This document shows positions 1 to 56,729 of a stretch of DNA of 64,000 nucleotides, piece after piece. The position numbers were made by a program, and so were the translations under genes. Under the pieces are notes generated by a model. The model searched no databases. It saw only the letters and a program-made list of their open reading frames with translations, and was not told where the DNA came from. Source of the DNA: Marsupella aquatica (lineage: Eukaryota > Plantae > Marchantiophyta); the NCBI GenBank assembly GCA_973895155.1, contig OZ316897.1, positions 18,634,457 through 18,698,456 on the forward strand, read 5' to 3'. Each line of letters begins with the position of its first letter. Positions within the stretch are counted from its first letter, which is position 1.

Positions 1-3051
<3,051 letters not shown>

Positions 3052-14129: not shown

Positions 14130-14526
14130 TGTTATTTCCATAATTTTCTTGCTCCAACAACTTATGCTTGTTAACCTTTATTTTTGTACCTTATTTACAG
14201 ACTATAAGGATAGTCTGGGCTGGGGTCAAATGTTTTTTGTGGGCAAACATTATTTAGCCAATCACTTACCCAAAAAATAGGCAGGCAAATGATACTCAGG
14301 CAAAATAAATTTAAAATGTTCCAATCACCACCACCAAATGCACTATGGGGGGAGCATTAGCCAAAATGTACTCTATAACTGTCAAAAAATACTGTATAAT
14401 TTCAGAAAGTACTTATAACCAAACCTATGCTTGTGTGTAGGGTATAGAGATCACCTTGGCGAGTGTTTGAGTGTTAAAGTTAACTCTAGTCTTGGGTTAA
14501 CTTCTTGTTAACCAGGCTAATTTGCC

Positions 14527-14592
14527 ATTAGGGTGTTAATAGTTTAGGGTATAGGGTGTTAGGGTTTAAGGTTTAGGGTGTAGATTTTGGGG
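14527..14592 (+). repeat. Degenerate interstitial telomere-like repeats (TTTAGGG/TTAGGG)
   Basis: ttagggtgttaatagtttagggtatagggtgttagggtttaaggtttagggtg. Confidence 0.5.
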
Positions 14593-18974: not shown

Positions 18975-20093
18975 TTTTGAAAAAATATACACACTTTTTA
19001 TATACAAAGGGACCAAACAGAGTACAAATGAACAAACAAAAGAGGGCCCAAGTGGACAAAACCAATCGAAAAAGAAGTGAGCAAAAGGGAACCACTAAAC
19101 ACCAAGAAAGAGGAACTAAAAGTAAGAAATGAACAATAGGGAACCCCTAAAAACCAAGAAAGAGAGAGAGACTAAAACTAACCCAAGCGGACCGAGGTCC
19201 TCATCATTCCTACCGATTGTGGCAAAAAGCTAATGGTCCACATCAAGAGTCAAAACTAGATCGGCAAGTGGGACTGGAACATCCTCAAGGGGAGCTAGCC
19301 GCTGCGGAGGCACACTAGCACCCACTGTAAGAGATCGACGATAGATGGCCCGAGCTTGAGCACGCTGTAAGGTGACTGAAATGCGTTGGCGAAAGTGCGT
19401 GGTCAAAATAGAAAGCGGGGGTCCGGTGGGACCCATTCGGCCATGAACATCCCGGGCAGCTTGCCGAAGAAGCCCATCAAACTGAGGATGAAGACGCCCA
19501 AATAGCTCCACAGCAAGGGGGAGGAAGCTGTCGGATGAAGCTCGTGCAGCATATTTGGCCTCCTTCGTTGTTGCCGCACGTGACGCTGCTGCCCCTGCTG
19601 TAGTTGCCGCTGTCCCAATGATGTCTTGGCGCAATGGGTTTGCCACCACAACCTCTGCCAAATTACGTTGACCCTCACGGACCATGGTAAGATCCACCCG
19701 TAACCGCTGTGATGGAGGACCAGGTAACTCGAGTACCACCTCCCGCCGCACGCATACCAAAGAGCCAGAGAGAACCTGAGCAGTCGCATCTTGCACAGCG
19801 TCGTGAACAATAATGGTTTCACCTCCCAAACTGCACCGAAGAAGATGGACACCTGTGGCATCACAAGGCTTCCCACAAGTGCAAGAAGGAGGTAAACCTG
19901 CAAGAAGTGGGTGGGGCAGCCCCAGACGAAGACACATGGCTGTGGAGAACTCCGTTGAAGACATCCGCAAATGAGGAATGACTGGATTGGCCTGAAGCCA
20001 TCCACCTGCGCCCTTCCCTCCGGACGAAAGAATCCGAGCTCGGTCCGTGTCAGGTGCCTCGGAGAGGATGCTGGAAAGGGTGAAAGTGTGCAT
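18975..20093 (-). mobile_element. 5'-truncated CRE-like non-LTR retrotransposon (zinc knuckle plus restriction-like endonuclease region, 3' UTR, A-rich tail); ORF 19230-20093
   Basis: DRARILS.GG.GAGGWL.A.P...F..A..LRLG, zinc knuckle CTCG...D..G.H...C, HDAV, RVDL...AEV...KEAKY (PD-(D/E)xK-like RLE) and FLPLAVELFG...QRISVTLQRAQA are typical of the C-terminus of CRE/RLE-clade elements. A pyrimidine-rich 3' UTR (minus strand) ends in tataaaaaa...caaaaa. No RT domain is present. Confidence 0.8.
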
Positions 20094-20144
20094 ACGCCAC
20101 AACTGGGTGCATACTGGCCACAACTGGGTGCATACTGGCCACAA
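20088..20144. repeat. 21-bp tandem repeat (gtgcatactggccacaactgg) x~3 at the retroelement 5' junction
   Basis: Directly visible; encodes the LWPVCTQ repeats in the ORF track. Confidence 0.85.
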
Positions 20145-20296
20145 CTTTACTCTACAATGCAACTGATGCAAAGGAAGTTAAACTGCATTTTTGAACAGCA
20201 TGAAATCATCCACATGCTTCCCTGGTCCATGGATTTAATTGCCAGATGTGATGCTCGCCATAGTCTAGGGAAAGTCTGGCTTCCTTGATTAGTTTA

Positions 20297-21820: not shown

Positions 21821-24800
21821 ATGGGCCTCACAGACAGAGCCAAGAAGCTCGTGAGCGAGACGCTGCGGCCGTGGCTGCGGCGCGACGTGTCTCCGATTCT
21901 CAATATCAGTGTCTCAGAGATCACGATGGTGTTGCCTGATCTGGAATTCGATGCGGAGGCGTTGAATCTCTCGGGCATGGAGTCGTCTCCGCTGTTGGTC
22001 AAGAAGGAGTCGTCGATGAAGGCAGAGAGCGTTCAACTGACGTTCGCTCCATTTCGGCAGCCCGTGCTAGCCGTCTTGGTGCAAGGCTGGCATGTGGACC
22101 TCGAACCAAGGTTTCTCCCAACCTGCTGCCCGCGGTTCAATGGTGAATGACTACTGTTGTGCGAGGATTTGTTGGGCCGGAGCAAGTCATTAACCCCTCC
22201 TGGTCACTCACAACCTTGTAATTAACGTCTCTCTGCCTCCGATTTAGGACATATATCAGAGCAATTGAATTCGGTGGAGCATTGATAGATAAGCTAGTAA
22301 CTCACAACCTTGCAATGAACGTCTCTCTGTCTCTAATTCGAGAAAGATATTATCGTATCAAATTCAGTGAGGCATTGATAGAGAGGGGAGTGAAATTAGC
22401 TTCTTAAAAACTGTAGCTGACTCTGTATTTCTTTTGTCTAACTAGGTCCGCCGAAGATGTTTGGTGGGAGAAGAAGAAGGACAAGGCTGCTGAGCAGAAG
22501 CAGATTGCCGCGCTTGAGGCCCTTGACCCACAGGTACTTCATTTCCTTCTTTTGTTGTATGCCGATTAGTTCAGGGTACTCGGCAACTTTTCCAATTGAC
22601 TCTGCGTCTGTTTTGTGCTGATAATCGGTTTGGACCTCGTGCCAAAATTTGAAATGCAATTTCATCATTGACGTATTCAATAATCAACATTGATTTGTTA
22701 AGAGGAACCGATGGAGGTCATGGGGCTGCCCTATGCACTTATTGTGTTTCATAACCTGATCATTTCCGGTTTCTGGCTGTACGTTGGCCGTATATTTTGG
22801 CTATCGTTCATTGTAGAATTCAACTGATATGTTGCTGTAAATGAGTAGGACATTGGAAAGAATTTATTTCTATGTTGGCAAGTGTTTAGATTTTGTGGGT
22901 TGAATACAGATTGTTCCGCATGAATCTCTGACTTTCAAAACTGTTTGGGTTGACCCGTTTTTGAAAGTCAGTGTTTGAGCATGATCCTTTTGAAGGCAAT
23001 TCGGAAACTTCTTCTCTCTGAGTCCAGAAGTGCTGTGTTGGTGGTTTTGAGATAAACCATCTAGGGGCTGCATAAATTTGAGCTAGAACAAATATTAACT
23101 TCAGATGTGGAAACACCTTCATTTCTGGTGTCGGTGCAGGGAGCTAGTGTGCACACAGCTGCCCAGGGGCTTGCAGAGGGGAAAAGCAGAAACAGTCTGA
23201 TAAGCCAATTCGTTACGAGCCTGATGTTGACGTCGGTTAGGCTGGAGTTCCGGGATTGCTCTATCAGACTGGTCTCGCATGTCCACGGTGGGCGTGTGCA
23301 TGTTTGCACCGTTCCCTTGACGAGCTTCGAGTTTGGAGGTGATGATAGTAAGGGTTTTAGCTGGTCAGGCGGCTTGATGGGCGCAGTCACAGCAGCTTTG
23401 GGTGGAATCTGGACGAAATGTGGAGCTCCTACTGAAAAGTACTGTGTCGCAAAAGGTCTTGGGCTGCTGGTTGAAACGCACGCTGCCGAGGACGATGGCC
23501 ACGGGAGCAGAAGGGAAGACAACCAACTGGATAATATAAATGCAGGCATAGATGACAGTGATCACCAGAACTCCTCTGACCAATCCACATTAGAGAATGA
23601 CGGGATGGCAGTATCGGCAACTCAAGCGATTTCTGTTAAGAAAAGAGATAGCTATGTCATTCTGTTTGAAGACTTGGTGCTCGGCATAAGGTTCATGGAG
23701 TTGGCAATGGATGCCATGGAATTTGATGCCCGAGAATTCGCAGTTGGTTTAGAACTTGAAGAAATTAATGCTCTTCAAACTTTAGTATCCCAAATTCAAG
23801 GCCCTGGCCAAGATTCATCAACCAGAGCTCAAGCAAGAGTAAGTGACTCAGTGGATGCTATTCGTTCTGGAAGGACGCCTGCAGAGATGTGGAAAAGGGG
23901 GATCCGAAAAGCTATGGAGCGTACTTCCCGAGGGCGTCTCACTTACACTTTTCAAGCAGGGATCTTGAGGAGTAGATATTCCTGGCTTTATGAATCCTGG
24001 CTTCTAGAGCTCGGATGGGGACGAAGACCAGATGATAGAGCTGAAAGAAACCAAAGTAAGAAGCGGGGAGACCGCGTCAAGAAGCTTTCAGAGGAAATCT
24101 CTGAAATTCAGAAGAAACTTCCAATTGAAGCCATAGCTTTGGGCAGACGTCTTGCTCGACGTCGAGTTTCAGCTGCCAGACATTCAAGTGAAAATACAGT
24201 CGGAAAGACGAACTCCTCATTTCAATATGAGCGCTTGACAAAAGCATACTCCTCATTTCAGGCGTTTATGGTTTCCTTCTGGAGGATAGTTGTAATGTCT
24301 ACTATCCTCATGCGGGGCAAGGCTCTTGGGGCGTCAATGTGGATGTCAGCTGCTCGGAGACTCGGTGTCAGTGAGTGGAAATCAGTTTCTAGTATCTTCT
24401 GGAAGTCTGGAAGTAAGGAAGGTGCACTTGCTTTGGATGACTCACAACCGATCTCAGGTTTAGAGTCTTCATCGGTATCAGTCGATCAGAGCAGTTTTGA
24501 TGACTACACACCAGAATGTGGCACTCCTGAGAATTATTTTCAGCTAGGTGGCTTGAAAGGGGATTGTGAAAGTGAAAATCATTTTGCAGAGAAGAAGAGG
24601 GGTTGGGGAATGGTGTACGCCTTTAAGATAAGAAGGGGATCCATAACTCTTGCTGGTAGAGCAATCAAAACACTCTACAAGGGAGAAGAAGCAGCTTCCA
24701 AACGAGAAGAACTTCAGTTGGAAAGTGCCTTGATTCCAGCTGTTAGTCTTTTTTGGAAAGAGATGGTGCTTGCATATGGCTCAACTGGAAATAATTATGG

Positions 24801-27800
24801 TACAAGCGTATCTTGTGGTACTTTGGGGGCTGAACTGTTCGCAGTCATTCCCTCACAACTCTCTCAAAGACTAACTGCAAACCTGGATGCCGAGGTATTT
24901 CACAAGGAATTTTCATCCCTTGGAAGGTGGACGTGCAAACAACGTGATAGAGCTTTATTGCTTTCAAGTTCTCCTTGTCCCCAGCAAAAGAAGATTGGCT
25001 CAGAAACCATCAGTGGGCACCCTCTCGCTGGCGAAATATATGAAAGGCACTGGACTTGGCAAGAACGACACCTGGAATCATGGACCAGGTCTTGGCCAAA
25101 ATCCAGGGTTACACAAGGAGTTAGTGGTGGTCAACACACGACGCCACTTCCGGATGATTTTGGTAGACCTTTCTTGCTAGCGGAGTTTAATAATTTAGAT
25201 GATGAGCCCAGCACAGAAGCTTACCCAGGAGGTCTGATCGAGTCCTCTTTAGCATTGGGTCAGCTGGATCTGATTCTGAAAGGGGCTTCCTTTACATGTG
25301 TTTTCCACCTGCTAAATGAATTTTTTACGTCTGAAAAGCCGACTGAAACGAAGCACACAGAAGCTACAATTCAATCTCAGAGTCAGAATGCACCTGTTGT
25401 CTACCTGGAGAAGATGTGGGATGACAATTATAGCAAGTATCTGGACATGTGCCGAGATTCTATGGTTGGTATTGTTCCCAAGAAGAGCATATTCCTCTCA
25501 GCAGTAGTTGAATGTCCCAGGTTTAGAGTGTCTGCCACTGCTGCTGAACTCCAAGAGCATAGGCCTGAGGGTAATAGATATACAAGTAGCAAAACGTCGA
25601 CACTGAACTCAAACACAGAGGCTACTATCATCTTTGATTTGGGACGGTTTGAATTGGCCATGTGGCCACCGCAGAAACAAACGGATGCAGTTGTAGAAAT
25701 ACCTTCGGAGGCCGTAGGAAGTGAATCTAGAGCTCCAAGCGAGTTGTGGAATCGTTCAGTGGAAAGTAAAGTCTGGCTAAAGAAGCCCCCTGCATCGGCA
25801 CACCCGGACTTTGGGGAGAAGAGACTTTGGGAACATGACCAAGTAGGAACCAACATGTACGCATGCATTGAAGGGTTGACGTTTGCACTGGAGTTGCAGC
25901 AGCAAGGCTTAAAGGAGCTTCCGGTTTTCGGACCCTTGGCTCTAACCGTTGAGACTTCTCTATGCTGGGACCAATACAGCTCGCTGTTGAGTACAAAGAA
26001 ATCTGTGTCAGCAACGGTCAATGCAGAATTGTTGTCTTTGACAGTGCAGTCATACATGTCGGAAGTCACACTTATACAACAGGTCGTTGGCTTCTATACG
26101 CAAGTCATGAAGTCAAGGTTGGGTGGCAATCCTGTGATGGTTGTGGAAGGAGAAGATAAGTTTCTGACCGTGGAGGCTAATGTACAGGAAGACCAGGTTT
26201 ATTGGGCAGAGGAAGGCCAAAATTCTGACTCAACACTTGACTCCGTATTGAGTGAGGAAGCCTCCTCCACTGCATGTACTCTAGCATTTGCGGTGGATCT
26301 TCAGAACTTCAGATTAGCTTTGGGGGACTCTAGACAAGCTGGTTATTCATCCAGCGGGAAGGGTGTTCCTCGTGCCCAAGGAAAGATGACGCAAAATGAG
26401 TATTTGCAGGACGAAGAAAGAGGTAAAAAATTGCCAGCTAGATATGGTCATGAGGGAGATAATGATGATCTATCAGGTGCAGTCTTGGGCAGGGAGGTTT
26501 ATGTTTTAATTCAGGATATTTCTTTCGGAGTATCTTTAGGAGATGAAGAGAATGTTGGCATCTTCATGGGGATGAAAAATACATTTGTACGGCTGGTGAA
26601 TTCTGGCAGTGACAGCAGGAGGAGTGATCTGGCTAAATTGAGAACTGATTTCTTCTCTGCATCCGTGAAATCTTTTCCTGGGCTCGTGCTTGCCGAGGTG
26701 GATGTGGAGTATTTTAGAGTAAAAGCGTTTAGTTCTGGTGCTCATCCAAGTACACTGAAGAAACTAGATTTTACTGAAAGGAATCGAACTACGCAGCAAG
26801 TTGATGGACCACAGTTGTCATCTCACCTGTCTGAAACCAATCTTGTGGACCTTGTGCAAAGTTCTTATGCAGATCCCACCAATATGACAGTCAAAGTAAA
26901 TGCAGAGCAACTCAAATCTGAGGATCAAAATAGTCCAGAGCAACAAAGATCCATCCAATCTGATGAAACCAGCAGCTCAAGCCCTATGAAGGGTGAGACT
27001 TTCTGGTTGGCCGCTGATGTGGAAGTAAGCAAAGTATTGGTAACTGATGGGTCCATAGATGTGCTTCTGGCCAAAGTTTCACGTCTGGCAAACGGTGAAG
27101 AAACCTTGCAGCTGCACTTTGGTGTTGACAGGGCTGTCCAGAACATTTCTGTAGGGGTGCAAGGTGGATTAATACTGGTTCATACTGCGGCTATAGCTAC
27201 TTTGTTTCAGTTCTGTGGGGACTTGGGGAATGTGATTGCGAGACCAGCAGACCTTACCAGTAACTCGTCTGAATCGCCTCACGAAATGTCCAACTTTCCT
27301 GTAAACAACGGATCTTTGCATGACCGGAAAGGAAGTCCCCCGCCAAGTGTTTATAGATCAGCTTCTGCACCAGCCTTATCTACGGAGAATCACATGAAAA
27401 ACATGAAGCGGACTTTTTCAGCCCCTGCCATAGCAGAGGTCCCTATCCCTGAGAAATCTGAGCTAGTTTCGTTGTTGCCAATATTTGATGGGGTCGTGTT
27501 CTCAAAACTTGCTGGATTTTCCTTGGTGTTAGCAAAACAGAGTGGAACTGACTCAGAAGGTGTTCTCCTCGAGCTAGAAATTTCCACGATGCTTGAAGTT
27601 GGTGAAAGTGCAAATAAGGCAAAGTTTGACCTTACGCGATTCACAATTCTCGGTCTTCAATCTCGAGGTCCTGAAAACTCACGTAAAGGGCCTCTAGGCA
27701 GGACTAGCTCTCGGACTCCACAGTTTGGTGCCTCCTTCAAACTAGGAGCAGTTGATCCACTTACGCAGGCTTCCAGTTCTCTCGAAGCAGTTTCAGAAAC

Positions 27801-30800
27801 TGGTGATAGTGGAAGAGTGGAAGACCAGCCCAAGAAGGAATCCACTGACCACTCGTCACCTAATTCTCTTTCCAGTCCAAAAGAACAGGTTGTTGCTGAA
27901 AATGGTGGATTGAAGGGAAAGGATGGGCCCCAGCAACCTGCAAGCGTAGACGAGCAAGCTGAGCGGTTTTACAATTCCCTCTCAGATTTCAACTCTTTCA
28001 TTCTGGAGCACTTGCTTGTGCATTTTTCTATGGAGAAGGTTAACGATCAACATAAGGTGTGGAAGTGGACCAATGCTTGGCAGGGCCAGTGCTTTGTAGG
28101 TGGATTCGATTTCGCCATCACCACCTCTGAAATTGAGTTGCTTGAATCTCTGGTGGCTCCTCTGTCCAGCATTGGAGGGTCGGGGTCTTCTAAATCCACT
28201 GGAGGGGAAGGTGCAGGCTTTGAAGTAACCCAAGAAGTCACTGATGAAACTAACTTTGAGATTCCGGATGGAGCTATAATTGCGATCAAGGATATTTACG
28301 AACACTGCTATCTGGCTGTCGAAGAGATATCCACCAACAAGGGACGCTATCGCTTGGTAGGGGTTCTGCATTACACTTTGGCTGGAGACAAGGCACTCTT
28401 TAAGGTGAAGTATCAGGATCCTCTCAGGAAAAACTCCGACGAGGATGCTTGGTTCTGGCTCTTGTCCGTTCATGCCAAGGGTGCTGATGGGGAGCCTTTC
28501 CGTGTGCACTGCCGCTCCGGGTCTGGTTTGGCTGATATTTCGTCGACAAAGGATGGACCATGGGAGAAATGGAGGTTTCTACCAGCCAAATCGTCGACTG
28601 ACGAAAACAGTGAAGAAGTTGGCGCTCAAAACCCGACCAAGAAGCACTTGTTTCACCTGGTGAATTACAAAAACGGAAGTGGTATTGCTTTTGAGGAAAA
28701 TGTTCCGGTCATAGTAAAGCAACCTGGAAATCCCTTTAAAGTAAAGATTTTTGCCGAGGCCCCAAATCAGAGAGGTGAATCGGAGGAAGATCTTGCGCGA
28801 CCGGAAAAGGTTCAGCAAGAAGTAGTTGGGTTAGTCAACTCTATACCAAGCATTGTCTGCACATTTGACACTTTTATTTTCACAGTGCTGCATGAAGCTG
28901 GTGGTGGCTTACATTTATTGCCGCTGGTGAGGCTTCGAATACCTGGCGGTGAGGGAGTAATGCATATGGGTCTGTCTAAGACAAGGACAATTCTTCAGTG
29001 TGCCATAGTGCTGGAGCATTTTGAATCTCAGAGCAGCCGATGGGTTTCAATTATCAATCCTATTGAAACAGATCTCTTCTATCGGGCCAGAAGCACAAGA
29101 TCTGAGTTAGGAGCTGCGAATAATGACTTGAAGTGCCCAGTGGCCTTCTTCTCAAGATTCAGGAAGGTAGATGTTGTGCTGAGTGAACCCTCCTTGGATG
29201 CGCTCCTCTTCTTGATTGGAGCTTTGGATTTAGCCGGGCCCTTTTCCTTGAAGTCCTCACCAGTGCAAGCAAATCGTTGCTTCGTGAAGAATATGACTGG
29301 GGTAGATGCACTCTGTAGTTTCGATCAAGCTTCGTCCAAAGTTGGTGGGAGGATTCCATCCTGGCATTCCGATGCATTCTTGATGAGGCATATGACTTCA
29401 CGGAGAGATTCGGGACCAGCAAAAGTTGCTTCCTCAGCTGCACTGTATCTCCAAAAGTCAGGCAAGGGGACGACATCACCTGTGATTGTGAGTCTAGGGG
29501 ATCCTGGAGTGTTTGCAATTAAGACTCGCCTCCGGGCTGATGCAGGACAAAACACTACTGGACCCATGGTTGTGGTGGATATTTCCAGGCGAAATGAGCA
29601 AGGGATAGTTGTCTCCGTCTCACCCATGGTCCGCATTCGAAATTCAAGTGGTCTTCCGCTTGAGCTCAGATGTAGACGAGATTCCGCTGGAGAGGAAGGT
29701 GCTGTGGTGGTGCTGGAAGATGGAGATACAATTGATGACTCAATGGCAGCATTTGATGCATTGAACCTTGCCGGGGAACTAAGAAAAGCTCTCGCATCTC
29801 TAAATCTTGGGAACTACTACCTGTCTGTAAGACCTGCTCCCGATTCTTCAATTGAAGGATTTTCTGACATGAGTGGCAAGGATGTCAATTTCGACTGGTC
29901 TGAGGACATCAAGGGAGCAAAGCCTGTGAAATCATCAGGAGCGTTGGACAAGCTTCAGTACAATTTCAGTAACACTGTGAACGCTAACAACCTGAAATCG
30001 TCATTCGGTGTGGTATTTTGCTCGTCAAAACTGAAGTCTTCGAAGGAGTCTTCTGGCCCTGATGATGAGGGAGGCCTGCACTTCTTGGTGAGGACAACTC
30101 GTCGTCAGGTACCCGTCTCCAGACCAAAAAAGGGAACCGAAAATGACCAGCAGCATGGACAGTACTCCATTGTAGCTTGGCAACAACAGCAAGAGCTTCT
30201 TTTGCTCCCGACTGTTCGTTTAATGAATCTTACTACGGCAAACATCTCAGTCCTACTTGTGTCAACATCGGACCGTAGAAAGACAAAAAATCAGGGAGAT
30301 GCCTTTCGGAAAAATGTCCCCATCTCGAGTTTTGGTACAAAATCTATGTATGTGGATCTCGGAGACCTTCTTTTGACTGTGAAGCAGGAGGATCTCAACC
30401 TTATAAGCAGGCCAATTAGTGTGGGAGTGGGGAGTAAGGAATTCTCTAAAAATTCCAAGCTTGGTCGCATAAGAGATGTAGAGATGGAAGTGGATTTTGG
30501 AGATGGTATGCATTCTGCTCTTGCTGATGTAAGACGAGGAGCGGATGGTGTCTTGGAGATCCTCCTCTTGACCAGATACACTTTGCAGAATGATAGTCAT
30601 GCAAACCTGCTCTGCTGTTCAGGAAGGCATCGTTCATCTTGGTGGGGAGGGATGCGAAAGAATCAGGAGCCAGATTGGCCTAGTTCGGGCACTGTGCTCA
30701 CCATAGCACCCAAATCAAAACTGTCATGGTTTGAAAAATCCACCATCGTACTTTTCAAACGAACGGAACCATTAGCAGAAACAGCACTCCTCGATCTTGA

Positions 30801-33519
30801 ATCTGTTTCTGGGTCAATGGAAATTAGTCTACGAGTCCACTGCCCAGACCGTGTGGATAACAGAATTCAACTGGGTGTCCAGCTGAAGGTGCCATCTGCT
30901 GAGGACTCCAACCCCTCGTGTATTATTCTCCTGGTCCCAAGATACGTTGTTGCGAATGACTCAAGTGAGGCAATACTTGTTTGTCAAGATGGATTTCAGG
31001 ACACTAATGCAACGATAACATTGGCACCAGGAGAAAGGTCTGCCTTAAACGCTCAGGAAGTGCCTGGTCAACCCGACAAGAATGGATCAGGGGATGAGGA
31101 AGTGGGACCTGACATTCTTCTCAAAGTGCGTTTCCGTCCTAAGGAATCAGGGTGCAGTTGGTCTGGTCCAGTATGCGCGGCTGCTCTAGGCTCGTTTTCT
31201 GTAAAGATAAAGCGCTTACAACAAGACGAACCTGAGTTTTCATCTCAAAAGCCGCAAACAGAGGAGGTCTTATTTGCAGTGGTAGAGGTACAGGAGAAAG
31301 ATTCATCTTTGATTATGGCCTTCCGGCGACAACCTGGTGATAGGATTCCGTACCTCATTGAAAATGCTCTAAGATCAGCTGCAATCACTTACAACCAAGA
31401 GGGTTTGGAAAACTCCGAATTGCTGGAAACTGGGGCATCTGTGGGTTATGTTTGGGATGACCTTGACAAGCCTCACACTCTGATTGTGAGTCTTGCTGGC
31501 GCTGCTGTGCAAGATCTGATCAATCCAGACAAGCTGAGGAGCTGGAAGCGATTCAGGGCATCCAGAGGGACAACGGGTCTTCTTCAGATACCATTCCTGA
31601 ACGATTTGAGTCGTCTGGCATTGTATGGAGATAGAAATGACGATGATGATGCGCCCACCTCAAAGGGTAATCAGCCACGTATAGGGTATGAAGTTTATGC
31701 CGATGGCCCCACTCGAGTTGTACGTATTTGTGAGGAGAAAGATGCCAGAGTTGAGAGAAACTGGCAGTCTGATGTGTCCAGGCCCAAAATGGAGATTGAC
31801 ATGCGAATACCAATTTTTACTGTAACTATTGCTGAGCCTGGGAAAGGGCCAGAGGAGGCTGAAAAGGAGGAAGGGACCAGTTTTGATACTGTACCATACG
31901 TACCAGTAATTTGTTTAAGGTTGACAAATGTTTTAATTGAAGCAAGGGTCACACCAGAGTACACGTTCTTTCAATTGAAAGATGAGCGGCTGGACGTGGA
32001 TGTGAAGTGGAAGGGAGCTCCAGTAGCTGCAATGCTCAGGGGTCATAATCAAGACCGCTTCGGGACAGGCCACACGATACTTCACACGGCCATAGTTATC
32101 TCCAACCGTGCGAAGAACCCAATACAACTCAAATATGCCTCCGTTTTACTTCAGGCAATCGATGTCAATCTTGACGAGGAGACCTTAATGAAGCTTGTCC
32201 CCTTTTATAGGGTCTCCCTCTCTGAATCGACTGCTCCAAGTCGACAAATATACTTCGAGCGTTTTGAGATTCATCCAATCAAGATTGTTGGGAGCTTTCT
32301 TCCCGGAAGTCCACGTGCGGACTATTCCTCAGGACAGGAAACCCTCCGAGCTCTCTTGCACTCAGTCATCAAGGTCCCAACCGTGCGTGGGGCCACTGTG
32401 GAACTCAATGGGGTGCTTCTCTCAAATGCTCTGCTTACCTTTAAGCAACTGGCCCTCAAGTGTGCTCAGCATTACTCTTGGTACTCGATGCGGGCTATAT
32501 ATATTGCCAGAGGGAGTAAGCTGCTACCTCCGGGATTTGCATCACTCTTTGATGACTCTGCAGCATCATCCTTGGATGTGTTTTTTGATCCGTCAAGTGG
32601 GTCTGTGGATCTGCAAGGTTTGACATTGGGTATGTTCGGGATGCTCAAGAGAGGATTGCGCAAGAAAGGGAAAGGAGGAGGCACTCAGCGTTATTTGGGG
32701 GATCTCCAACATAGCGTGAAGGCAGCAGGGTCCAATATTCTCTTTGCAGCAGTGACGGAGGTGTCAGACAGCGTGGTGAAGGGTGCAGATGCGAATGGAT
32801 TCGATGGTGTGTTGAGTGGCTTCCGGCGTGGCATATTGAATGTTGCAATGAGGCCATCTGTGCTGAGAGGTGCAGTGGTCCAAGGTGGTGCCATCAGAAG
32901 AATCAAGTTGGACCGGATTGTGGGGGCTAATGAGGCATACATTGAGGGCTATTTGCAGGCAACGTTGGATGCCTTGTTCAAGCAAAGTTATGTCAGGGTG
33001 AAGGTAATAGATGACCTGGTCCTTCTAAAAAATCTCCCTCCAAACACCACCTTGATGGAGGAAATGGTACAATGTGTAAGGGACTTCTTGATAGGAGAGG
33101 GGCTTCTTGCAGGAGAGTCTTCACCAGCTGCTCTCAGTGCACTCAGACGGCTTCAAGGAGAAGATAGACGACTGGGGGCTACATTGGTTGCCGTCTGTGA
33201 ACAATTGCTTGTCATAATAGTGGTGCGTTCCCTGCGTCGTCAAACAATAACAGTGCTTCGCAAAAAGAACATCACCTTCATTGGAGGGACCCAGCCAGAG
33301 ATTTATGACTCCGCCCAAACTGACAAGGACAAGGCAAAGGAAGAGCACAAGGAACAGCCACGTCAAGGGTTTTTTGAAGGAATCAACGTGAAGAATGCGC
33401 TGCTTAGCTTTGCCTTTTCGAGTGCACTGGCATATGTAGATGGCAGAATCTGTCGGCACATACCAAATCCTTTGGTTCGCCGTGTAGTTAGTGGATTTTT
33501 ACTCAGCTTTGTTGAGTGA
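21821..33519 (+). CDS. VPS13X: VPS13-family bridge-like lipid transfer protein, plant VPS13X-type (~3585 aa); exons 21821-22110, 22446-22533, 23140-33519
   Basis: N-terminal LRPWL, LDPQ|G; W......A region and Y..LY typical of VPS13; VAB/SHR-BD-like repeats (PRYVVAN, WSGP, PYLIEN, YVWDD...P, DGPTRVVRI); C-terminal IYFERFEIHPIKI and ...YVDGRICRHIPNPLVRRVVSGFLLSF, which I recall as characteristic of Arabidopsis At3g50380-like proteins. Splice phases (2, 0) are consistent. Confidence 0.85.
22205..22382. repeat. ~95-bp diverged tandem duplication in VPS13X intron 1
   Basis: actcac(ac)aaccttg.aat.aacgtctctctg...gcattgataga occurs twice (~22205 and ~22300). Confidence 0.65.
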
Positions 33520-47200: not shown

Positions 47201-48278
47201 ACCCACTCCACATGCTTTCTCAAGATCTCCCGCAAGGTATGGTTCGGGGCCAACTTTAGAAAGGAAGGTGAAAGCTGCCTCAACCTGTGGTATGGACTTC
47301 ACCTGCACATTAAACCCATTGCTCAAACAATAAATATAGCAATCATCATAGTATATCTTGCACATACTTAAGACAAGTCGAAACAGTAACGCAAATGGAT
47401 ACTTTAAGAAACCAATGTGGCGCACCTTGCCCTCGGCAACATATTTTAGCAGTACAGGACGATGCTTCAGAGCATTGTTTGGAAACTTGGTTGCAACCTG
47501 TTAAAAAATATATATGAATTAGTGACCAAAACAATTCGTCACTCTGGCCATTTACAAAGTCCAAATGAAAGAAGCCAAACGAGCGGCCTTGACGTCGATC
47601 ACGTTAGTAAGGAGAATTACCGAGTACAGCAGGTTCCCTATTGATCTGTCACACCCGTCCTCTAATCCAGCCTGCAATCAACAAACGAGTGGAGCTCAAT
47701 GAGGATTCCGACCTCTAACCCATCTCAACCAAAACCAGGAATCTACATATCTTCACTGACCACAAATTCGCGTGGAACTAAGTATGTGTAATTTGAAACA
47801 AAAACAAGGCAGAGGACGATTCAGTCGGTAAACAATCACAAAAACCCTAAACCCTACATTCCACGGCAACTGGCAGAAGCCGTTGAACTTGACGTAATAA
47901 ACATATGAAATCTCGCGGTGGCGACTGACGTGACGTGACACACTCTAGATTACTGGATTCCGGAAATGATGCAAGGAAAATTGCACCCATTCAAGGCTCT
48001 GAATTTTCGTTAGCAATGCCAATTCCGGATTCCAGAAAGAGAGGCATGGAATAAACAAACAATATAGAAGATTAAGGGAGAAGCGTGCATATCTCCGGGA
48101 AAGAAAATGCTGAAACAAGAATACTAACCTCACTGATGACGGCTGTGAGATTCGCTGTGACTTTGGCATTGGCGACTGCATTTTGGGCAGTCTTCTCGTC
48201 CAGTCCAATCTTCAGAAAGAGCTGCTTCGCGGCCGAATTCTTCAGCTCCTTCTCGCTTTTCTCATCCGGAGCTGGCAT
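41295..48278 (-). CDS. GlnRS: Cytosolic glutaminyl-tRNA synthetase (class I), multi-exon
   Basis: N-terminal [19 protein letters not shown]; [16 protein letters not shown] (HIGH, ~46030-46090); [10 protein letters not shown]; [10 protein letters not shown]; [16 protein letters not shown]; LRMKQDM; [17 protein letters not shown]; LCTLEF; VWEYSRLNV...VMSKRKL; [16 protein letters not shown]; FQFERLGYY; [12 protein letters not shown]...stop at 41295. Confidence 0.96.
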
Positions 48279-50380
48279 GGTCGCTTCTCGCGCGAGCGCG
48301 CGCAGATCAGATTGATTCGGCGTAAGGGCTCACGCACAGCACAAAATCAGAAGCTCAACGATTGAGCGCCACAAAACCTCTCTGAAGGTGAAAACTCAAA
48401 CTCGACCCATTTTCCGTATCGTCTACGATACATTCAGCAGCACACAGAAGTGATATTATCCCAGCTAGAATGTTTACTAGAATAGTATTATCCCAGAAAA
48501 CTGATACTATAACCTTGTCATCCCAGATGTGCCATACTAAAGCAGTAGTATCCCGGATGTACCCAGCCAAAGGGGTTTCAGAGCCCACGAGCAGGAGTGG
48601 GATCGAAGAAATGGATTACAGAAATTCCTGAGAACAGAGGAGCTGCCGCCCAGGAAAGCACTTTTGATGGGTGCCAGTTATCGCAGCAGAGATGGGTCTC
48701 GAAACACGTGATATGTTCGGCCAGATCGAACAAACCATACGGAGTATTAGAAGGTAGTGAGGTTTCGAGGTCCTCCCAACTCAACTCCTACGAAACTGTG
48801 ATCATCGCTGCTCTGGTCACTGCTTCGCCTGAATTCTTCGCCGGCTGTTCGTCTGCAAAATCCCGAAGGTAGACACTACTCCATGATCCAAGACAGAACC
48901 TGCCAATCTCAATTCTCTGTTGACCGAAAACAAGACCCGCTTCGGTGACTTATTTCACTCTTCCAAAATTCTCGTATTCGTTTGCATGTACTCTCTTCAT
49001 ATCACCAGATTAGGACACTGTGTAAACATTTCTATGCTTTGTAAAAGGTGGTATTTCTTGGGTGGGTGGGGTTTCCAGGCTCGTTTGCTTTTGCAGCCCG
49101 GTACCTCAATTTCTCTTTCTCTGTTGTCTACCATTGAACAACGACAGATTACTTCGACCGTGATTTAACACTGGGCAATTGGTTATTGTCCACGTGAGAA
49201 GCCCTTTTTGAGGTGCGTGCATCATTGGTGTCTCCAGATCGAGCTGTGCCCAGACGAGGTAACTGGCTTGGCTGGTACTTCTTGTTCGCATTCAGAATCT
49301 CGGATCTGATGCTGCTGGTCTGGAGAGTTTTGGAAGGACCTGCCAATTGTTGAAACGGAGCATCGCGTGCGTATCTTTCCTGATCTGGACATCCTCGCGT
49401 GTTCTTCGAGCTTTCCAGCTAGCTATGAGCGGGTTTAGAACCTAATGACAATCCATTTGGGACCTAGGCATCCCCGTAGGCCTCCCCTCGGAATGCAACA
49501 TTCTACCTCAAGAAATTACTCAGAAGGAGAGCTTCGAAGGGAAGGAGGTCCTAGACTCTTCAGAGAGTATTACCCTGCCCGTTGGTGATACTACGTAACC
49601 TTAGCAACTACTTCGCCTTACCGACACAGGTGTTGGCTTCCAAGCTTTGTAGATGACAGTCGATTCACGTCCTTAATCTTTTTGAGAACTTCATCTTTTA
49701 CTGGGTCTTTGAGATGTATGTACCAGTCGAACATCTCTGTCCTCGAGCAGAACCTTGTTTTGTTGACAGTGAGCATATACAAACAATATCTTTGGAACAG
49801 TCATGCTTCTAATTAGAAACAAATGAACTTGGTGATCTGAACTCGGTGGTCATCTTTAGAATTAATTACCAGTTGTGGAGAACGTTTCGATGTCGCTTCC
49901 ACATTTCCTTCCATGGTTTTGCAGATTGACATTCATTGACCCCAACAACGATTTTCGAGTACCTTTGGTCAAAGAATGGTTTCCATTGCCTCACACTGTT
50001 GTTACCTTTTGGAGAATGCTATCGATTGCCTGATCTGTTGTGGAGCATCCTCTCCCAGGTCTCCCCGAGCATCTGGATCTTCCGAAATACATAGACATGT
50101 GTCTCAAGTACTGTAATTCTTCTCTCAACTCCTTCCTTTCGGCATTTTGGTGAAATTTTGAGTGGCTTATTCCTTTCTTCTGGATGGCTCCGAAGACCTC
50201 AGATCTGGCATACTATGTGGATTGAATTATGATGTAGCTTGATGTATCAGAAAATCATGATTCCTTTGATAGTTGTTGACTCGTACCCAAGTCCTTTGGC
50301 ACTAGCATTGCACTTACTCGCAAAGCGCATGTCAAATAGAATTACAATGGTCTCTCGTTTTTGGCGTTTGGTTCTGTCAG

Positions 50381-53300
50381 GTAAACGACTCCTTGTACTT
50401 GCTGCACAAACCGAAAGGCACGAGTCCCAGTATACAGATCTTGTTCTTTCATGGTCTCCAATTTGGACAAGATTATTCCAACGCACATGTTTCAACTTGG
50501 GAAAACCATGATGGTTCTTGCATCTGGCCACAAACGTGGTTGGTTGAGGAGTTTCCCAAGGCTCATATGTTAACTGTGTGTTACACTGAAGGTTTGAAAA
50601 AGAGGTCAAATGGAGGCATGGACATGTACAACATAGGAGAAAACCTGGTATCTGATCTTCTGCTGGAGAATATCGGGTCTTCTTGTCCTGTTGTATTGGT
50701 TGGTCACTCCATTGGCGGATTGGTTATCAAGCAGTTGTGTATCCAAGCACATGATATGCTCCACAGCAGCTCCGAGCCTCAGGCAGCCAAGTTGAAGGCC
50801 TTTCTAAAGAGCATCAAGGGGATATTTTATTATTCAACTCCTCATCAAGGAAGCCCCGTTGCAAACAGATTGAAAGATCTCTTTGGAAATTCTCTCTTGA
50901 TGTACTTTGCATCGCTCAGTACGGACACACAAAGACTCAATTCTAAATTTGACAATATATCCAACGTACATTACCACTGGTTGTTTGCTGGACTCGGTGA
51001 AACTCTCTCTACTGATTTGGTACGAAGTTATTTGAATTGAGCTACAAATTGCACGATGTAATATTGTGTATGCGTGGGTTGCATGTCTGGAAGAAATTCG
51101 ATATGTGAGTCTATTGAGTTCGCGTCAGTTACAGTTCACATTTGAACTGTAACAAGTAGAAATCCAACAATGTAACTGAACAATCCAATGTCATGTTAGT
51201 CAAAGTTTGTGAGCATTGCCATCTATTTCGTCTCAGGTGGAAATTCATGTGATACCTTTGCTTGAGTCCCGTATTTATATGATCAAGTTGCGTGAGTTTT
51301 ATCCTGAAACAAAAATGTGGGTATTAACATTATGTACTGGATTCTGTTGTTGATTTGGTTTGCTTCAAAGTGTTCCTAAGAAGTCTACTAGAGACTCTGC
51401 CTGAAAGGGGTCCAGATTTGTACATCTTCAGAATTTGAATTTGACTGTATACTGTGTTGGGCAGGGACCATTTGTGGGCGACGTTGTACCGGAGGCGTCT
51501 GCAAGGGTAGCTGCCAATTTCAATCTTGTGGAGGGAGCGGATCACTTTTCCATTTGTAGACCAAGAAGCAAAATCGTAAGAAACTTCTCGAAACTTCACA
51601 AATTTATCCACGGGATTGCCAATGACTGGAAGGTAGGATGACTGGACCCTTTACAGCTAGTGAAGCAATGCCTTATTCGTATTGATATCGTCAATATAGC
51701 TTGTTCATGTATGAGTCAAATTTGGAACTTAATGTGCTGATATTCAATGTCGCTGAAAACTCAGGAGGATCATGAGAACGCCACTGCCAGTAAGGTAGAA
51801 CGATTGCCGCTGCCATTCCTGAAAGACCCCAAATATGTGGTATTCCAAACAACCACGATCAGAGTTCAAGAAGCTCTGGAGAGTGAAACGACAGGCCCTG
51901 TGGTCACACTCTGTGGAGGACCGGGACAAGGGAAAACAAGCATGGCAAGATATCTGGCTTTGTATTACCAGACCACGTCCATGCGAACTGAATCATCAAA
52001 AGTTGTTCAAAATGAAGAGTTTGCTTGCAAGGATTTGGCTTCCAGTAGATTTGTAGACGGGGTAGTCTTCTTGCCATGCGGTCCGAACATGAATAGCAAA
52101 GACCTCCTATTCAAACTTTGGGAAATTTTGGGCTACCAGCGTCTCCCGTTGATGGGAGTTATGCACGGCCATGCAAGTTCCAGTACTGTGATGGAACAAG
52201 TCTTCGTAACTGAGTCATTACTATCCAATGAGCTCACAAGAAGGCTTTCGACTCAAAAGCTTTTGATTATACTTGATGATGTCTGGGAAGCCGCGCTGGT
52301 AGAGAGGCTATTGTTTCCTGGGCAATGGCTGAGATATTTAATCACTACGCAGATACCACAATTGTGGAATGATGCTAGATGTGAGCAGATCCCGTTGGAT
52401 TGTCCAACTTCACAGGAGGCAAACCAAATTCTCACAAACCATGTATATGGGAGACCCAAAGACATCACGCCACCATTGCAGGTAAGATCCTTATTCATAT
52501 TCAAATTTTGCCTTGCGGTATAGAATGATCGCACTTTTTGTTTGACAGTCACTTCGAGTTAAGTGGATGTTGTTACCCAGAATTTAAAATGGAAGGCAAT
52601 TTCAAGATATGGAGGTAACCTCTGTGAGCATGTGTGTGGCAGGAGGCAATTGATTCAATTGTTGAGAAGGCAGATCGTCACCCTTTGGTGCTTGCCAACA
52701 TGGCTTCAAATATACTTGCAAGTATTCAAGGCAAAGATGTTGATGAATTGGTAGAATGGAAAAACATCGTAGAGTATTTTGATGATCTAATCCAGGATGA
52801 TGCTTCCAGCTCCCCCGTTGTTTTATTTAATCACACATACCCAAAAACCATGAAAGCTTCAATGACATTGGCCTTGAGTTCTCTTTCAGAGCACGCTCAA
52901 ACTCTATTGTTGGTGGCCTCAATATTTGACAGCCAACCAGTTCTAGTTCCTGAAGTGGTATTTAAACTCTTTTTTCGAAGGCTCCATTGTACTTTGGCCA
53001 AGTTTTCGAGATGCTCCAAGCACTTGCAAAACAACAACTTTGTCCAAATCGATAGTAAAGATCTTCCATGGAGTGCCATCCCTGAGAAGACCTGGTCATT
53101 ACATGCTATGCGGCAAACGTTTATCGAGATACTCAAAGGGAGTGAAGTGAAATCAATGGGTGACATGTTTTTGGAATGCAAGACAGAGGAGGACATTCTT
53201 ATTGAATTGCTACTGCTTTACGGGCAAGAGCAATGGCGTGACCAAGCAGCAAACAAATTAGGGGTCCCAAAGAGCATGCAATTAGGTCCCATCAAATCTT

Positions 53301-56300
53301 TCGTCTGGCTCCTCCATGGAGATGCCAGGGAAGAGTGGGAGGAAAAATCACATCAATTGGCTAAGCAGGTAAGTTAGTCTTCATATGTCCTTTGCATTAG
53401 TGCTTTATCTCTGACTTTGATGTCAGTTGGTTAAATTAATCTAGTACTATGTCTTTATTGTACCAAATATACTTTCTCAATTATTGTGATACGCTCCTTG
53501 TGAATTGATATTGGGTTTGGTCTACGGTAATATGCTAAGCTATGGCTTAACTTGTATATCCATATCTTACAATCCCTTTCGAGATTGTCTCAGCCAGTTG
53601 TATGTCTATTTACCTTTGTTGACCTATGGTTATGTTACAATGTTTTGAATCTCCATCCATGTGGTGAAAGTGAAATAATGAGATTGAAGGAGTCAGTCTT
53701 GGTACGTCGATCAGGGGATCTTATGATTTATACATGATGATTGATACGGTGAGCTTCTACAATGTTTCATTCACTAGTTTCTATTGCTTTCTTGGCATAG
53801 TGATGACTCTTTACTTCTTGACCTTCCAGATTCTCCAAAAGTACATATATTGCCATGAGCTTGATGACAACAGCCTCTGTGCATTGTTGAGCACAACAGA
53901 GACAACTTTGCACACATTGGATGCCCTCCGGAAATTTCTCACCTGGAATGTACCTACACTAGTCATTCCCAGAACACTTCATGCTCTTGTGAATCTCCTA
54001 GAACTGACAAACAACAGTCGAGAGCATGTTCTGTTGCCATTGACATTGGTGCTAAGCAACCTTTTCTATCAATATCCTCATCAAAGGATTGAGTTTACTT
54101 CAATTCCACATGCCCTGGACAGACTTCTCATCCTCTTGGCCGCGGATGTAGATGAGCATGTACAACAGTGGGCAATCAATGCATTAGGAAATTTGGCCTT
54201 AGATGGTGGAAATAGGACCAAGATCATCAAGTTTCCAAATGTCATTGGAAGACTTGTCACGCTCTTGGCCGAGGGCACTGCCAAGAATTTACAATCTTCT
54301 GCTGCCTTTGTGTTGGGAAATTTGGCAGCGGATGTTGAAGGCAGGAACAAGATTGTCAAATATCCAAATGTCATTGGGAGACTTGTGGCCCTTTTGGCTG
54401 AGGATGTAGGTGAGGATGTACAAAAATGGGGGGCTTACACATTAGCAAAGTTGGCTATGGATGAGGAAAACAGGATCAAGATCATCAAATATCCAAATGT
54501 CTTTGGGAGACTTGTGGCCCTCTTGGCTGGGGATGTAGTCAAAGATATACAACAGTTGGCAGCTCAGGCATTAGGCAACTTAGCCAAGGATGTTGGAAAT
54601 AGAATTAAGATCATGGAGTTTCCAAATGTGATTGGAAGGCTTGTCGCGCTATTGATCGACGGCACTAGCAAAGAGTTGCTATCATGTGCAGCTTTGGCAT
54701 TAGGGAATTTAGCCCTGGATATTGAAACCCGAATAAAGATTGTTGAATTTCCAAATGTCATTGGCAGACTTGTGGCCCTCTTGGCTGAGGATGTAGGTGA
54801 GGATGTTCAACGATGGGGAGCTTTCACATTAGCAAAGTTGGTTGCGGATGTTGAAAACAGGATCAAGATTGTCGAATTTCCAACTGTCATTGGGAGACTT
54901 GTGGCCCTCTTGGCTGAGGATGTAGGCAAGGATGCTCAACAGTGGGCAGCTCAGGCATTGGGTAACTTAGCCATGGATGTTGAAAACAGAAACAAAATTG
55001 TTGAATGTCCGAGTGTTATTGGAAGACTTGTGGCCCTCTTGGCCGAGGATAGAGACAACAAAGTACAGCTATTTGCAGCTCGGGCGTTAGCCAACTTAGC
55101 CTCTATTGTTGAGAACAGGATCAAGATCATTGAATATCCAAATGTCATTGGGAGACTTGTGGCCCTCTTGGCCAAGGATGTAGGCGAGGATGTACAGCAG
55201 TGGGCGGCTTGTGCATTAGGGAACTTGGCCTTGGATATTGAAAATAGGATCAAAATCATGGAGTTTCCAAATGTCATTGGAAGACTTGTCGCGCTCTTGG
55301 CTGACGATGTAGGCAAGGATGCACAGCAGTGGGGGGCTTTCATGTTAGCACACTTGGTTGTGGATGCTGAAAACATGATCAACATTGCCAAATTTCCAAA
55401 TGTCATTGAGAGACTTGTGGCCCTCTTGGCAGAGGATGTAAGCAAGGATGTACAACAGTGGGCAGCTCTGGCATTAGGTAACTTAGCCTTTGATGTTGAA
55501 ACTAGGATGAAGATTGTTGAATGTCCAAATGTCATTGAGAGACTTGTCGCCCTCTTGGCCGAGGATGTAGGCAAGGATGTACAGCGATGGGGGGCTTTCA
55601 CATTAGCACAATTGCTTGTGAATGCTGAAAACATAAACAAAATTGTCAAATTTCCAAATGTCATTGGAAGACTTGTGGCCCTCTTGGACAGGGATGTAGG
55701 TGAGGATGTTCAACAATGGGCAGCTCTGGCATTAGGCACCTTAGCCTTGGATGTTGAAACCAGGATGAAGATTCTCGAATGCCCAAATGTCATGGGGAGA
55801 CTTGTGGCCCTCTTGGCAGAGGATGTAGGCGAGAATGTACAGCGGTTGTCAGCTCGGGCATTAAGGAATTTAGCCTTAGATATTGAAAACAGGATCATGG
55901 TCATCCAATTCCCACAGCTTATTGGGAGACTTGTGGCTCTGTTTTCCTTGGATGTGAGTGATGGTACAAGAAGTTGTGTAGCAAAAACCTTGCGAATATT
56001 GTCGTTGGAAGTACAGAGTGGGGACTATGAGGGGGCACTTCAGGATTATGAAGACACTCTGGCGGGGATTGATCCAAAAAATGGGGTTCTTTTATGGTAA
56101 AGAAGCTTATCACTTGGTAGAAGTACCATACAATAATTGATTGATGATTAGATCATGGATGAAAATTAGCCTCAAAGCTGATAGATAGGGCTTTCTTGTA
56201 TAGGTGTGATGGAAGTTTTATAAAGCTGATTGATTGATTGTTAGGAGAGAAAGATAGTCACTACATGCAGTACCCTCTAATATCTTTCCCCACAAAATGA

Positions 56301-56729
56301 TGGCCCCGGCAATTTCATTATTTTCTCACAGGATTGGACATGCTGTCTTTGATTTGCAGTAACAGATGTTTTGTGAAAGCAAAGCGTGGAGATTTTGACG
56401 GGGCTCTCACAGATATCAATAAGTTCATTGAACTAGGAGGTGACAGAGTTGTTGGCTTGCAGGAAAGGGGCATTGTGAAACGAATGAAAGGCGACCTGCA
56501 TGGGGCACTCGCAGATTTGAACGAATGCTTAAGCCTGCACCGAGATGACTATGAATGCCTTAAACATCGCGGTTACATCAGGTTCTTGTTGTCGGATGAA
56601 AATGGAGCCCGGGCGGATGCTGAGCGTGCACGCACAGCCAAACCTGGATATGTAGACAACTGTGGGTATGGAAGTGACCTTCTCCTCGGAACAAAGTCAG
56701 TAGAATATCTCGGCTATAACCTAAAATAG
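50381..56729 (+). CDS. NLR-like STAND protein: alpha/beta-hydrolase + NB-ARC + ARM repeat array + TPR; exons 50381-51019, 51465-51632, 51765-52481, 52643-53368, 53830-56096, 56360-56729 (>=1628 aa; first exon not located)
   Basis: Hydrolase motifs ILFFHGL, WPQTWL, VVLVGHSIGGLVIK (GxSxG), YYSTPHQGS, GADHFSICRP. NB-ARC motifs GGPGQGKTS (P-loop), LLIILDDVW (Walker B), YLITTQ (RNBS-B), DRHPLVL (GLPL-like), WSLHA (MHD-like). 43-aa ARM repeats follow, then TPR-like GDYEGALQDY, GDFDGALTDINK, RGIVKRMKGDLHGALADLNECL. The six exons total 4887 nt and are all GT-AG and in frame. Confidence 0.88.
54106..56010 (+). repeat. Coding tandem array of 129-bp (43-aa) ARM repeats, 14 full + 1 partial
   Basis: ccaaatgtcattgg.agacttgtggccctcttggc.gaggatgtagg recurs exactly every 129 bp from 54106 to 55912. 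Confidence 0.95.

Follow-up and report, generated by a model that had tools for sequence, protein, structure and literature searches.

A hydrolase-headed NB-ARC-ARM-TPR gene of the liverwort Marsupella aquatica: a mosaic gene and likely immune sensor

A 64,000-nucleotide stretch of the Marsupella aquatica genome (assembly GCA_973895155.1, contig OZ316897.1, positions 18,634,457 to 18,698,456; hereafter the window) carries a gene that joins an alpha/beta-hydrolase head, an NB-ARC switch, a solenoid of armadillo (ARM) repeats and a tail of tetratricopeptide repeats (TPR). We read it, with a probability of roughly 60%, as a member of a liverwort NB-ARC-ARM-TPR family with a swapped hydrolase head, likely acting as an intracellular immune sensor. 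This study establishes how the gene is built, the order of its domains, its place in the family, its mosaic origin and the variation of its repeats. By its switch sequence the gene is placed in the NB-ARM lineage, yet it is not a CC-NB-ARM, the coiled-coil (CC) headed form typified by rice RLS1, as its head is an alpha/beta-hydrolase and not an N-terminal coiled coil.

Gene structure

Six exons with GT-AG intron ends join to 4887 nucleotides, that is 1628 amino acids and a stop, with no internal stop, and the joined frame reads in the order hydrolase, NB-ARC, ARM, TPR (Table 1). Pfam searches with the six exon frames agree with this order, which had been proposed in the first-pass annotation, a model-made reading of the letters of the window. 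The matches were DUF676 (E value 9.7e-5, above the cut-off), PGAP1 (4.6e-4, below the cut-off), NB-ARC (4e-8), ARM_ARMC5 (7.6e-30), Arm (2.2e-14) and TPR_2 (3.1e-6); the second and fourth exon frames had no Pfam match, and no leucine-rich repeat (LRR) family was found in any of the six. GC content is 43-47% in the exons vs 36-41% in the introns, and the junctions of exons 3/4 and 4/5 correspond to consecutive residues (564/565 and 820/821) of P0062, a Calypogeia fissa protein. Together with the ratio of nonsynonymous to synonymous change (dN/dS) of the repeats, these features argue beyond chance for the six in-frame exons. The proposal of one gene of the nucleotide-binding leucine-rich repeat receptor (NLR) type with a non-LRR sensor is supported. 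Separate genes for the hydrolase, NB-ARC and ARM/TPR parts were considered and rejected, as P0013, P0027 and P0062, which are colinear with the gene, run across the junctions. No second copy of the gene was found within the window.

The 1628 amino acids were at first taken for the whole product. This model opens with a Val after an acceptor and has no start codon; therefore, a first exon is missing. It is probably the leader exon listed in Table 1, which is in frame with the six exons and would bring the product to 1672 amino acids and the open frame of the seven-exon model to 5019 nucleotides. Within a tblastn search space of 2.1 kb, the leader is weakly matched by the N-terminal ends of P0009 (E value 0.003), P0036 (0.007) and P0002, P0004 and P0005 (0.042). 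It contains two Cys-Cys pairs, and its relative P0036 opens with a Gly-Cys-Cys motif; lipid anchoring through the leader cysteines is a possibility.

All five introns between the leader and the ARM exon are in phase 0, and an exchange of parts would therefore be possible without frameshift. Acceptor 56359 of the last exon has two rivals, 56331 and 56365, either of which would cut off the TPR exon. We prefer 56359, because it preserves the reading frame as well as the similarity to P0013 and P0027; tail-less isoforms through the rival acceptors are possible. The splicing of the six- or seven-exon model is predicted from homology. Four sequencing runs cover the introns and contain no GT-AG joints, and are therefore uninformative on expression.

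In two of the runs, X3 and X4, a second, diverged copy was detected, in which position 49653 is joined to 54061 and the head and the switch are missing. The joint is seen in one contig per run, with 49 and 52 letters on the short side, and both runs belong to one study. This copy may be another haplotype or subgenome, and its deletion fits presence/absence variation. It could also mean that the gene, as part of a family with fast turnover, arose by recent recombination without selection or is decaying, and is silent or dispensable although its sequence looks intact, the more so as the first exon is only predicted, the two alternative acceptors would truncate the tail, and the window's own protein was absent among the protein-search matches. 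We consider this unlikely. The frame is open over all seven exons, the catalytic triad and the P-loop are intact, the repeats have a dN/dS of about 0.35 with 11 invariant positions, and C. fissa has two annotated proteins, P0013 and P0027, with the same four-part order. Furthermore, contigs identical to the window occur in X3 and X4 as well, and in runs of two studies.

Family placement of the switch

The NB-ARC has an intact P-loop (GGPGQGKTS) and Walker B (IILDDVW), as first described. Other motifs are non-canonical, with TTQ at sensor-1, LHA for MHD and RHPL for GLPL. Calypogeia fissa, also a liverwort, has the nearest relatives of the gene. The only match in a search with the NB exon was P0062 (68% identity), which is 64% identical over the HD1/WHD exon. 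A profile of the NB-ARC and the following linker found 75 representatives among 1.84 billion at E values up to 1e-30; of 20 looked up, 16 were from liverworts, three from vascular plants and one had no name. An ESM Atlas search with residues 340-900 of P0062 returned generic NB-ARC/STAND clusters only.

In the NB-ARC tree of 36 rows, the window gene falls in a clade of 26 rows (support 100/99) whose named members are all liverworts. Its sister group consists of four vascular CC-NB-ARMs of 1044-1104 amino acids (100/99; joint branch 97/92, and 97/94 in an earlier tree of 20 rows). The NB-ARCs of hydrolase-headed NLRs (Hyd-NLRs) form a separate clade (100/99), and the window gene stands apart from these and from the CC-NB-LRR proteins (CNLs). 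Rice RLS1 is represented in the tree by its stand-ins P0064 and P0192, and no sequence of the TIR-NB-TPR (TNP) type was among the rows of the trees. Four spurious or second P-loop matches, 15 of 65 hydrolase heads that were near-duplicate or partial, and fragments were left out of the trees. At position 366, where gain-of-function RLS1 is altered (PMC10030324), P0064 has a Val; it also matches a streptophyte NB-ARC/Arm cluster at 0.98. Ceratopteris 13G054700 and Selaginella XP_024540053 and XP_024519935, which belong to the four vascular proteins or stand next to them, are rows of the published CC-NB-ARM cluster (PMC12512272, Table S3); the Selaginella XP identifiers were matched to the XM numbers of that table by a constant offset, with XP_024519935 as cluster mate of XP_024540053.

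The liverwort clade is recognizable beyond the switch. A hidden Markov model (HMM) of the linker matches many of its members, and the linker and tail models match proteins of Marchantia, Riccia and Calypogeia. All features of the liverwort NB-ARM-TPR subclade, namely the post-WHD linker, the ARM array and the TPR tail, are present in the window gene. Of the 26 clade members, 24 have Gln or Glu at sensor-1, where each of the four vascular sister proteins has Arg; the MHD Asp is lost in 24 of the 26 and kept in two. By these comparisons the NB-ARC-ARM-TPR body is already known, as a liverwort expansion sister to the RLS1-type CC-NB-ARMs. The first-pass annotation had presented the four-part order as uncharacterized. 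A protein of this order was indeed not found in the literature searched; its NB-ARC, ARM and TPR parts belong to an existing liverwort subfamily, and the gene is hence a head-swapped variant and not a new class.

A swapped hydrolase head

The head contains Ser110 in the GHSIGG nucleophile elbow and His240 in DHFSIC, both of which had been noticed before, and Glu207, which its conservation suggests as the catalytic acid. Across 65 aligned hydrolase domains, 53 keep the Ser, and the Glu and the His are each kept by 61. An AlphaFold model of exon A alone is an alpha/beta-hydrolase (predicted local distance difference test, pLDDT, 84.5). Foldseek searches with it found serine hydrolases in general (best E value 6.7e-5, TM-score about 0.5) and indicated no substrate class, and searching the PDB with P0010 yielded no more than a weak match to a hydrolase (E value 0.46). 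A sequence search with the hydrolase found 61 proteins (374-2000 amino acids), mostly from C. fissa, with Riccia, Marchantia and Ceratodon behind.

The head and the body have different relatives, as separate trees of the two parts also demonstrate. The head of the window gene shares 57-58% identity with the hydrolases of the C. fissa Hyd-NB-LRR proteins P0002, P0004 and P0005, among which it is nested in the hydrolase trees, and only 36% with that of P0062. Over the NB-ARC and ARM parts, identity to P0062 is 64-68%. In windows of 40 amino acids, identity to P0062 is 25-57% before the intron between hydrolase exon B and the NB-ARC exon and 50-85% over the following 480 amino acids, the rise beginning at the first codon after the intron. 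Across the same intron, identity to P0002 and P0005 drops from 40-78% to 10-28%. This suggests that a helical head was likely replaced by a Hyd-NLR-type hydrolase at this phase-0 intron.

The trees call for more than one such change. In the hydrolase tree of 50 domains, six NB-ARM-linked heads stand in six places. In a subset of 24 rows, the approximately unbiased (AU) test rejected a clade of the window hydrolase with that of P0062 (p 0.0012) and a clade of the four Calypogeia-type heads (p about 1e-48). The NB-ARC tree needs four head changes, at least three of them forced by its starred branches, and these counts carry no direction. A gain of the hydrolase is proposed because heads other than hydrolases prevail in the clade (16 members vs ten with a hydrolase) and are the type of its vascular sister group. 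A single origin of hydrolase-headed NB-ARMs was rejected (AU p 0.003 for the NB-ARCs, about 1e-48 for the heads), and the NB-ARC tree also rejects a Hyd-NLR in which LRRs were swapped for ARM repeats.

Within the family, the TPR tail is missing from P0062, and P0063 carries a helical head where the others have the hydrolase. Hydrolase-headed members from Riccia also belong to the NB-ARC clade; the ARM family was not detected in them and they were not counted as four-part proteins. Six proteins of a hydrolase-headed NB-ARC clade (P0060, P0086, P0087, P0120, P0127 and P0129; Riccia where named) have Asp at the nucleophile position, no detected His motif and long C-terminal regions without a Pfam family. 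The Hyd-NLR-type head is further found in tandem-hydrolase proteins and, without NB-ARC, fused to U-box, B-lectin and DnaJ domains (P0008, P0010, P0011, P0018, P0021 and P0026); P0010, P0021 and P0026 come from short Logan contigs and are possibly transcripts.

TPR tail

About three TPRs had been noticed, and three were found, one in the large exon and two in the terminal exon, whose identity to the P0013 and P0027 tails is 48-54%. In the NB-ARC tree, the tail is present in nine of the 16 liverwort clade members without a hydrolase, and NB-ARM-TPR is therefore likely the ancestral body. This spread across the clade led us to reject the tail as a new addition; the TPRs are likewise not a second sensor that was added separately. 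The tail is also homologous to those of the Hyd-NB-LRR proteins P0012, P0041 and P0049. Since the head occurs on U-box, B-lectin and DnaJ proteins and the tail on Hyd-NB-LRR proteins, exchange between the NB-ARM and Hyd-NLR lineages seems to involve both ends, head and tail. In C. fissa, the tail of the NB-ARM clade is shared by the Hyd-NB-LRR proteins P0012, P0041, P0045 and P0049, with three tandem copies in P0012.

ARM repeats as candidate sensor

The large exon encodes 15 ARM repeats of exactly 43 amino acids (129 nucleotides) each; a tandem-repeat scan reports a period of 129, 14.0 copies and 72% matches. AlphaFold models the exon as a regular armadillo solenoid with three helices per repeat (pLDDT 85.8), and Foldseek matches the model to axonemal ARM chains, Vac8 and beta-catenin. 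The 13 core repeats are 74% identical in nucleotides and 63% in amino acids, with the dN/dS and invariant positions given above.

Variation is greatest at repeat positions 40 (seven residues), 33 (six), and 6 and 29 (five each). Eight positions (26, 29, 30, 33, 36, 37, 40 and 41) form what we take to be the armadillo peptide groove of the designed-armadillo literature, an assignment for which we found no citation. Their mean entropy is 1.73 vs 0.92 overall (p 0.0002; 0.003 among variable columns), p-values that are optimistic as the set was named after viewing the per-position table, and their dN/dS in the core repeats is 0.76 vs 0.27 elsewhere. Positions 26-37 lie on the long third helix of the AlphaFold model. 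The pattern suggests that helix 3 is under relaxed or diversifying selection; positive selection is not proven. Variation peaks at positions 29, 40 and 30 in P0062 and at 30 and 33 in P0027. Internal repeat identity is 83% in P0062 and 75% in P0027, and P0063 is less homogeneous (53%).

Comparison with known systems

The closest published relatives are those of the CC-NB-ARM cluster, with rice RLS1 (LOC_Os02g10900), which resemble the window gene in NB-ARC lineage, in the HPL-type variant of GLPL and in having an ARM sensor. Published members of the cluster include the Marchantia genes Mp5g08960, Mp5g10840, Mp5g21860 and MpNBS-LRR15 (NB-ARM-TPR), and Table S3 of PMC12512272 lists six Marchantia (NBARC)(ARM)(TPR) rows among its 62 rows of the cluster. 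The Marchantia paleacea protein P0101 shares the TPR tail with the window gene. None of these 62 rows has an (a/b) hydrolase, whereas the window gene is headed by one. RLS1 has three ARM motifs compared with the 15 homogenized repeats of the window gene, and the vascular CC-NB-ARMs keep the sensor-1 Arg (four of four) and mostly the MHD Asp (three of four), in contrast to the Gln and the lost Asp of the window gene.

Bryophyte Hyd-NLRs share the N-terminal DUF676/PGAP1-like head and, in some C. fissa proteins, the TPR tail, but their NB-ARCs belong to another clade and they carry LRRs. Table S3 of PMC12512272 has 70 "Hyd-NLR" entries, and no ARM was found in any of the underlying rows. TNPs are likewise non-LRR plant NLRs with an enzyme-type head and TPRs; they form a separate cluster in the parts of PMC12512272 consulted, and the six exon frames of the window have no TIR match. 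No hydrolase-NB-ARM protein was found in the literature searched, which was mostly non-subscription, and such proteins may stand under "other" in the supplement of PMC11218826; the literature search for "Calypogeia" with "NLR" returned no papers. The new part, not found in print, is thus the Hyd-NLR-type head on the NB-ARM-TPR body. A metagenome scan yielded two loci from 214 pattern matches; one proved a false lead, lying in a DnaB-like helicase region of a bacterium, and the other has the same match.

The logic of the gene is similar to that of fungal NLRs of the sesB-like/NB-ARC or NACHT/TPR type (Dyrka et al. 2014, PMC4986451), which combine a lipase-like head with a non-LRR sensor. The sections consulted describe head swapping between close NOD domains and internally conserved repeats that vary on the concave face. 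The ARM repeats of the window gene appear likewise homogenized, with the variation mostly on helix 3. The differences are a plant-type NB-ARC and ARM repeats, "armadillo" having no occurrence in the main text of that paper, and an internal amino acid identity (63%) below the 85% used there as criterion, which P0062 approaches. The likeness is best described as analogy and not membership.

Proposed function

We propose that the ARM solenoid would keep the switch off until a microbial protein, or a modified host protein, is bound in the helix-3 groove. Ligand binding would open the NB-ARC and lead to oligomerization, probably in the ADP state as in RPP1, which we suggest because a Gln replaces the Arg at sensor-1. 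Gln or Glu at this position marks TIR-NB-LRR proteins (TNLs) such as RPP1, whose active form is ADP-bound (PMC8813719, in part). The clustered heads would then yield a defence or cell-death output. Expression, ligand, oligomer and activity are predicted, with ligand-dependent oligomerization and the defence output proposed by analogy with RLS1 and Marchantia hydrolase heads. Activated RLS1 causes cell death and resistance (PMC10030324), and two Marchantia Hyd-NLR heads caused hypersensitive response (HR)-like death and ion leakage in Nicotiana benthamiana (PMC11218826, section 8).

How the head would act is a closer question. An intact triad makes activation of a lipid hydrolase, as first suggested, possible for the window protein, and within our model we lean slightly, and with uncertainty, towards Ser-dependent ester or lipid hydrolysis over non-catalytic docking. 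Instead, the head could be an integrated decoy or a non-catalytic scaffold, with the sensor needing a CC-headed NB-ARM paralogue or another helper. Ten hydrolase heads sit on switches of the NB-ARM lineage, and Ser is present in only two of them (window gene and P0013), with Cys in two and Asp in six. The same head is a mobile module, also present in tandem-hydrolase, U-box, B-lectin and DnaJ proteins, most paralogues in the NB-ARC tree have no hydrolase, and EDS1-family lipase-like domains keep their triad and act as scaffolds (PMC8813719, in part). We regard a decoy or scaffold that depends on such a helper as rather improbable, given that the hydrolase takes the exact place of the helical head, that the triad is widely conserved among the aligned domains, and that isolated Marchantia heads suffice for HR-like death (PMC11218826, whose section 8 does not report catalytic mutants).

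Besides the assumed groove positions and their after-the-fact choice, several points weigh against the proposed reading. The loss of Ser in eight of the ten lineage heads is the main result against a general lipase output, and the His motif was not found in the six Asp-type heads of the lineage. The label "CC" for the other heads is based on length, a missing hydrolase match and published annotation, and the head of P0063 matches no Pfam CC family. Loss of the MHD Asp may mean that the off-state is non-canonical. The link to RLS1 is limited by marginal AU tests in the 20-row NB-ARC tree, where placement with Hyd-NLRs or CNLs was rejected at p 0.040 and 0.043, by long branches, and by the linker HMM, which missed P0064 (E value 0.68) and so did not connect it with the clade. 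In the repeats, which are not independent of one another, dN/dS exceeded 1 (1.6-1.8) only at the two or three sites of highest variability, a choice made after the fact. Finally, no tested function for any member of this liverwort clade was found in the literature.

The deviating switch motifs could also belong to a STAND protein that regulates development, senescence or the quality of organelles instead of immunity, and the role first assigned to RLS1 was in the degradation of chloroplasts during senescence (cited in PMC10030324). We think this very unlikely, as family expansion, head swapping, homogenized repeats with a variable groove, and the deleted copy fit non-self recognition better (compare PMC4986451). 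For allorecognition, which the first-pass annotation had named as another option, the analysis yielded no evidence.

Returning to the immune sensor, a bolder version of it can be put forward, tentatively and with more doubt than belief: liverworts may have turned a conserved RLS1-type NB-ARM into fungal-style combinatorial receptors, with homogenized ARM arrays and a hypervariable peptide groove as sensor. Their output heads, coiled coils or hydrolases, would be traded with NLRs of the LRR type through a phase-0 intron, and the gene described here would encode a ligand-activated hydrolase resistosome.

Table 1. Coordinates of the gene parts and of the deleted stretch in the window
Feature	Positions	Strand	Remarks
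First coding exon, probable	49976..50107	+	44 amino acids, ATG to phase-0 GT donor; Cys- and Ser-rich leader
Hydrolase exon A	50381..51019	+	Alpha/beta-hydrolase core; Ser110 (50708-50710), Glu207 (50999-51001)
Hydrolase exon B	51465..51632	+	His240 (51543-51545)
Phase-0 intron at the head/body swap point	51633..51764	+	Change of the identity profile
NB-ARC exon	51765..52481	+	P-loop 51915-51941, Walker B, sensor-1 TTQ
NB-ARC HD1/WHD and start of helical linker	52643..53368	+	RHPL for GLPL, LHA for MHD
Large exon	53830..56096	+	Linker end, 15 ARM repeats (54082-56016), first TPR
Terminal exon	56360..56729	+	Two further TPRs and conserved C-terminal tail
Stretch absent from the second, diverged copy (runs X3, X4)	49654..54060		Leader, hydrolase and NB-ARC removed

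Neighbouring features

The nearest neighbour is a divergent first exon of a glutaminyl-tRNA synthetase (48072-48329, minus strand; Pfam tRNA_synt_1c_R1), about 1.7 kb from the probable start of the receptor gene. An uninterrupted frame of 3484 amino acids on the plus strand (23065-33519) contains a VPS13 adaptor-binding domain (Pfam 1.4e-9); an intron-free VPS13-like frame of this length seems unusual for a plant. Subtilase exons (23-3051) and an RBX1-like RING-H2 frame (7642-8271) lie on the plus strand, and several tandem arrays at 13754-16201. A 315-amino-acid frame on the minus strand (19230-20177) has no Pfam match; by eye, it resembles the end of a retroelement open reading frame.

Significance

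The signalling mode of hydrolase-headed NLRs is still open (PMC10586772, in part). The same switch with a helical (P0063), a Cys-type (P0062) and a Ser-type head (window gene) offers a matched set for distinguishing catalysis from clustering. Should the head be inert or the gene silent, the finding would be reduced to a further case of domain shuffling in a family that evolves fast. The results suggest that distantly related NB-ARC lineages of plant NLRs can exchange their heads. They also suggest a use of ARM arrays as variable immune sensors in plants; the rules by which such arrays bind peptides are well studied. If true, a hydrolase resistosome would be an enzyme output of plant NLRs beyond TIR and kinase, on a non-LRR body.

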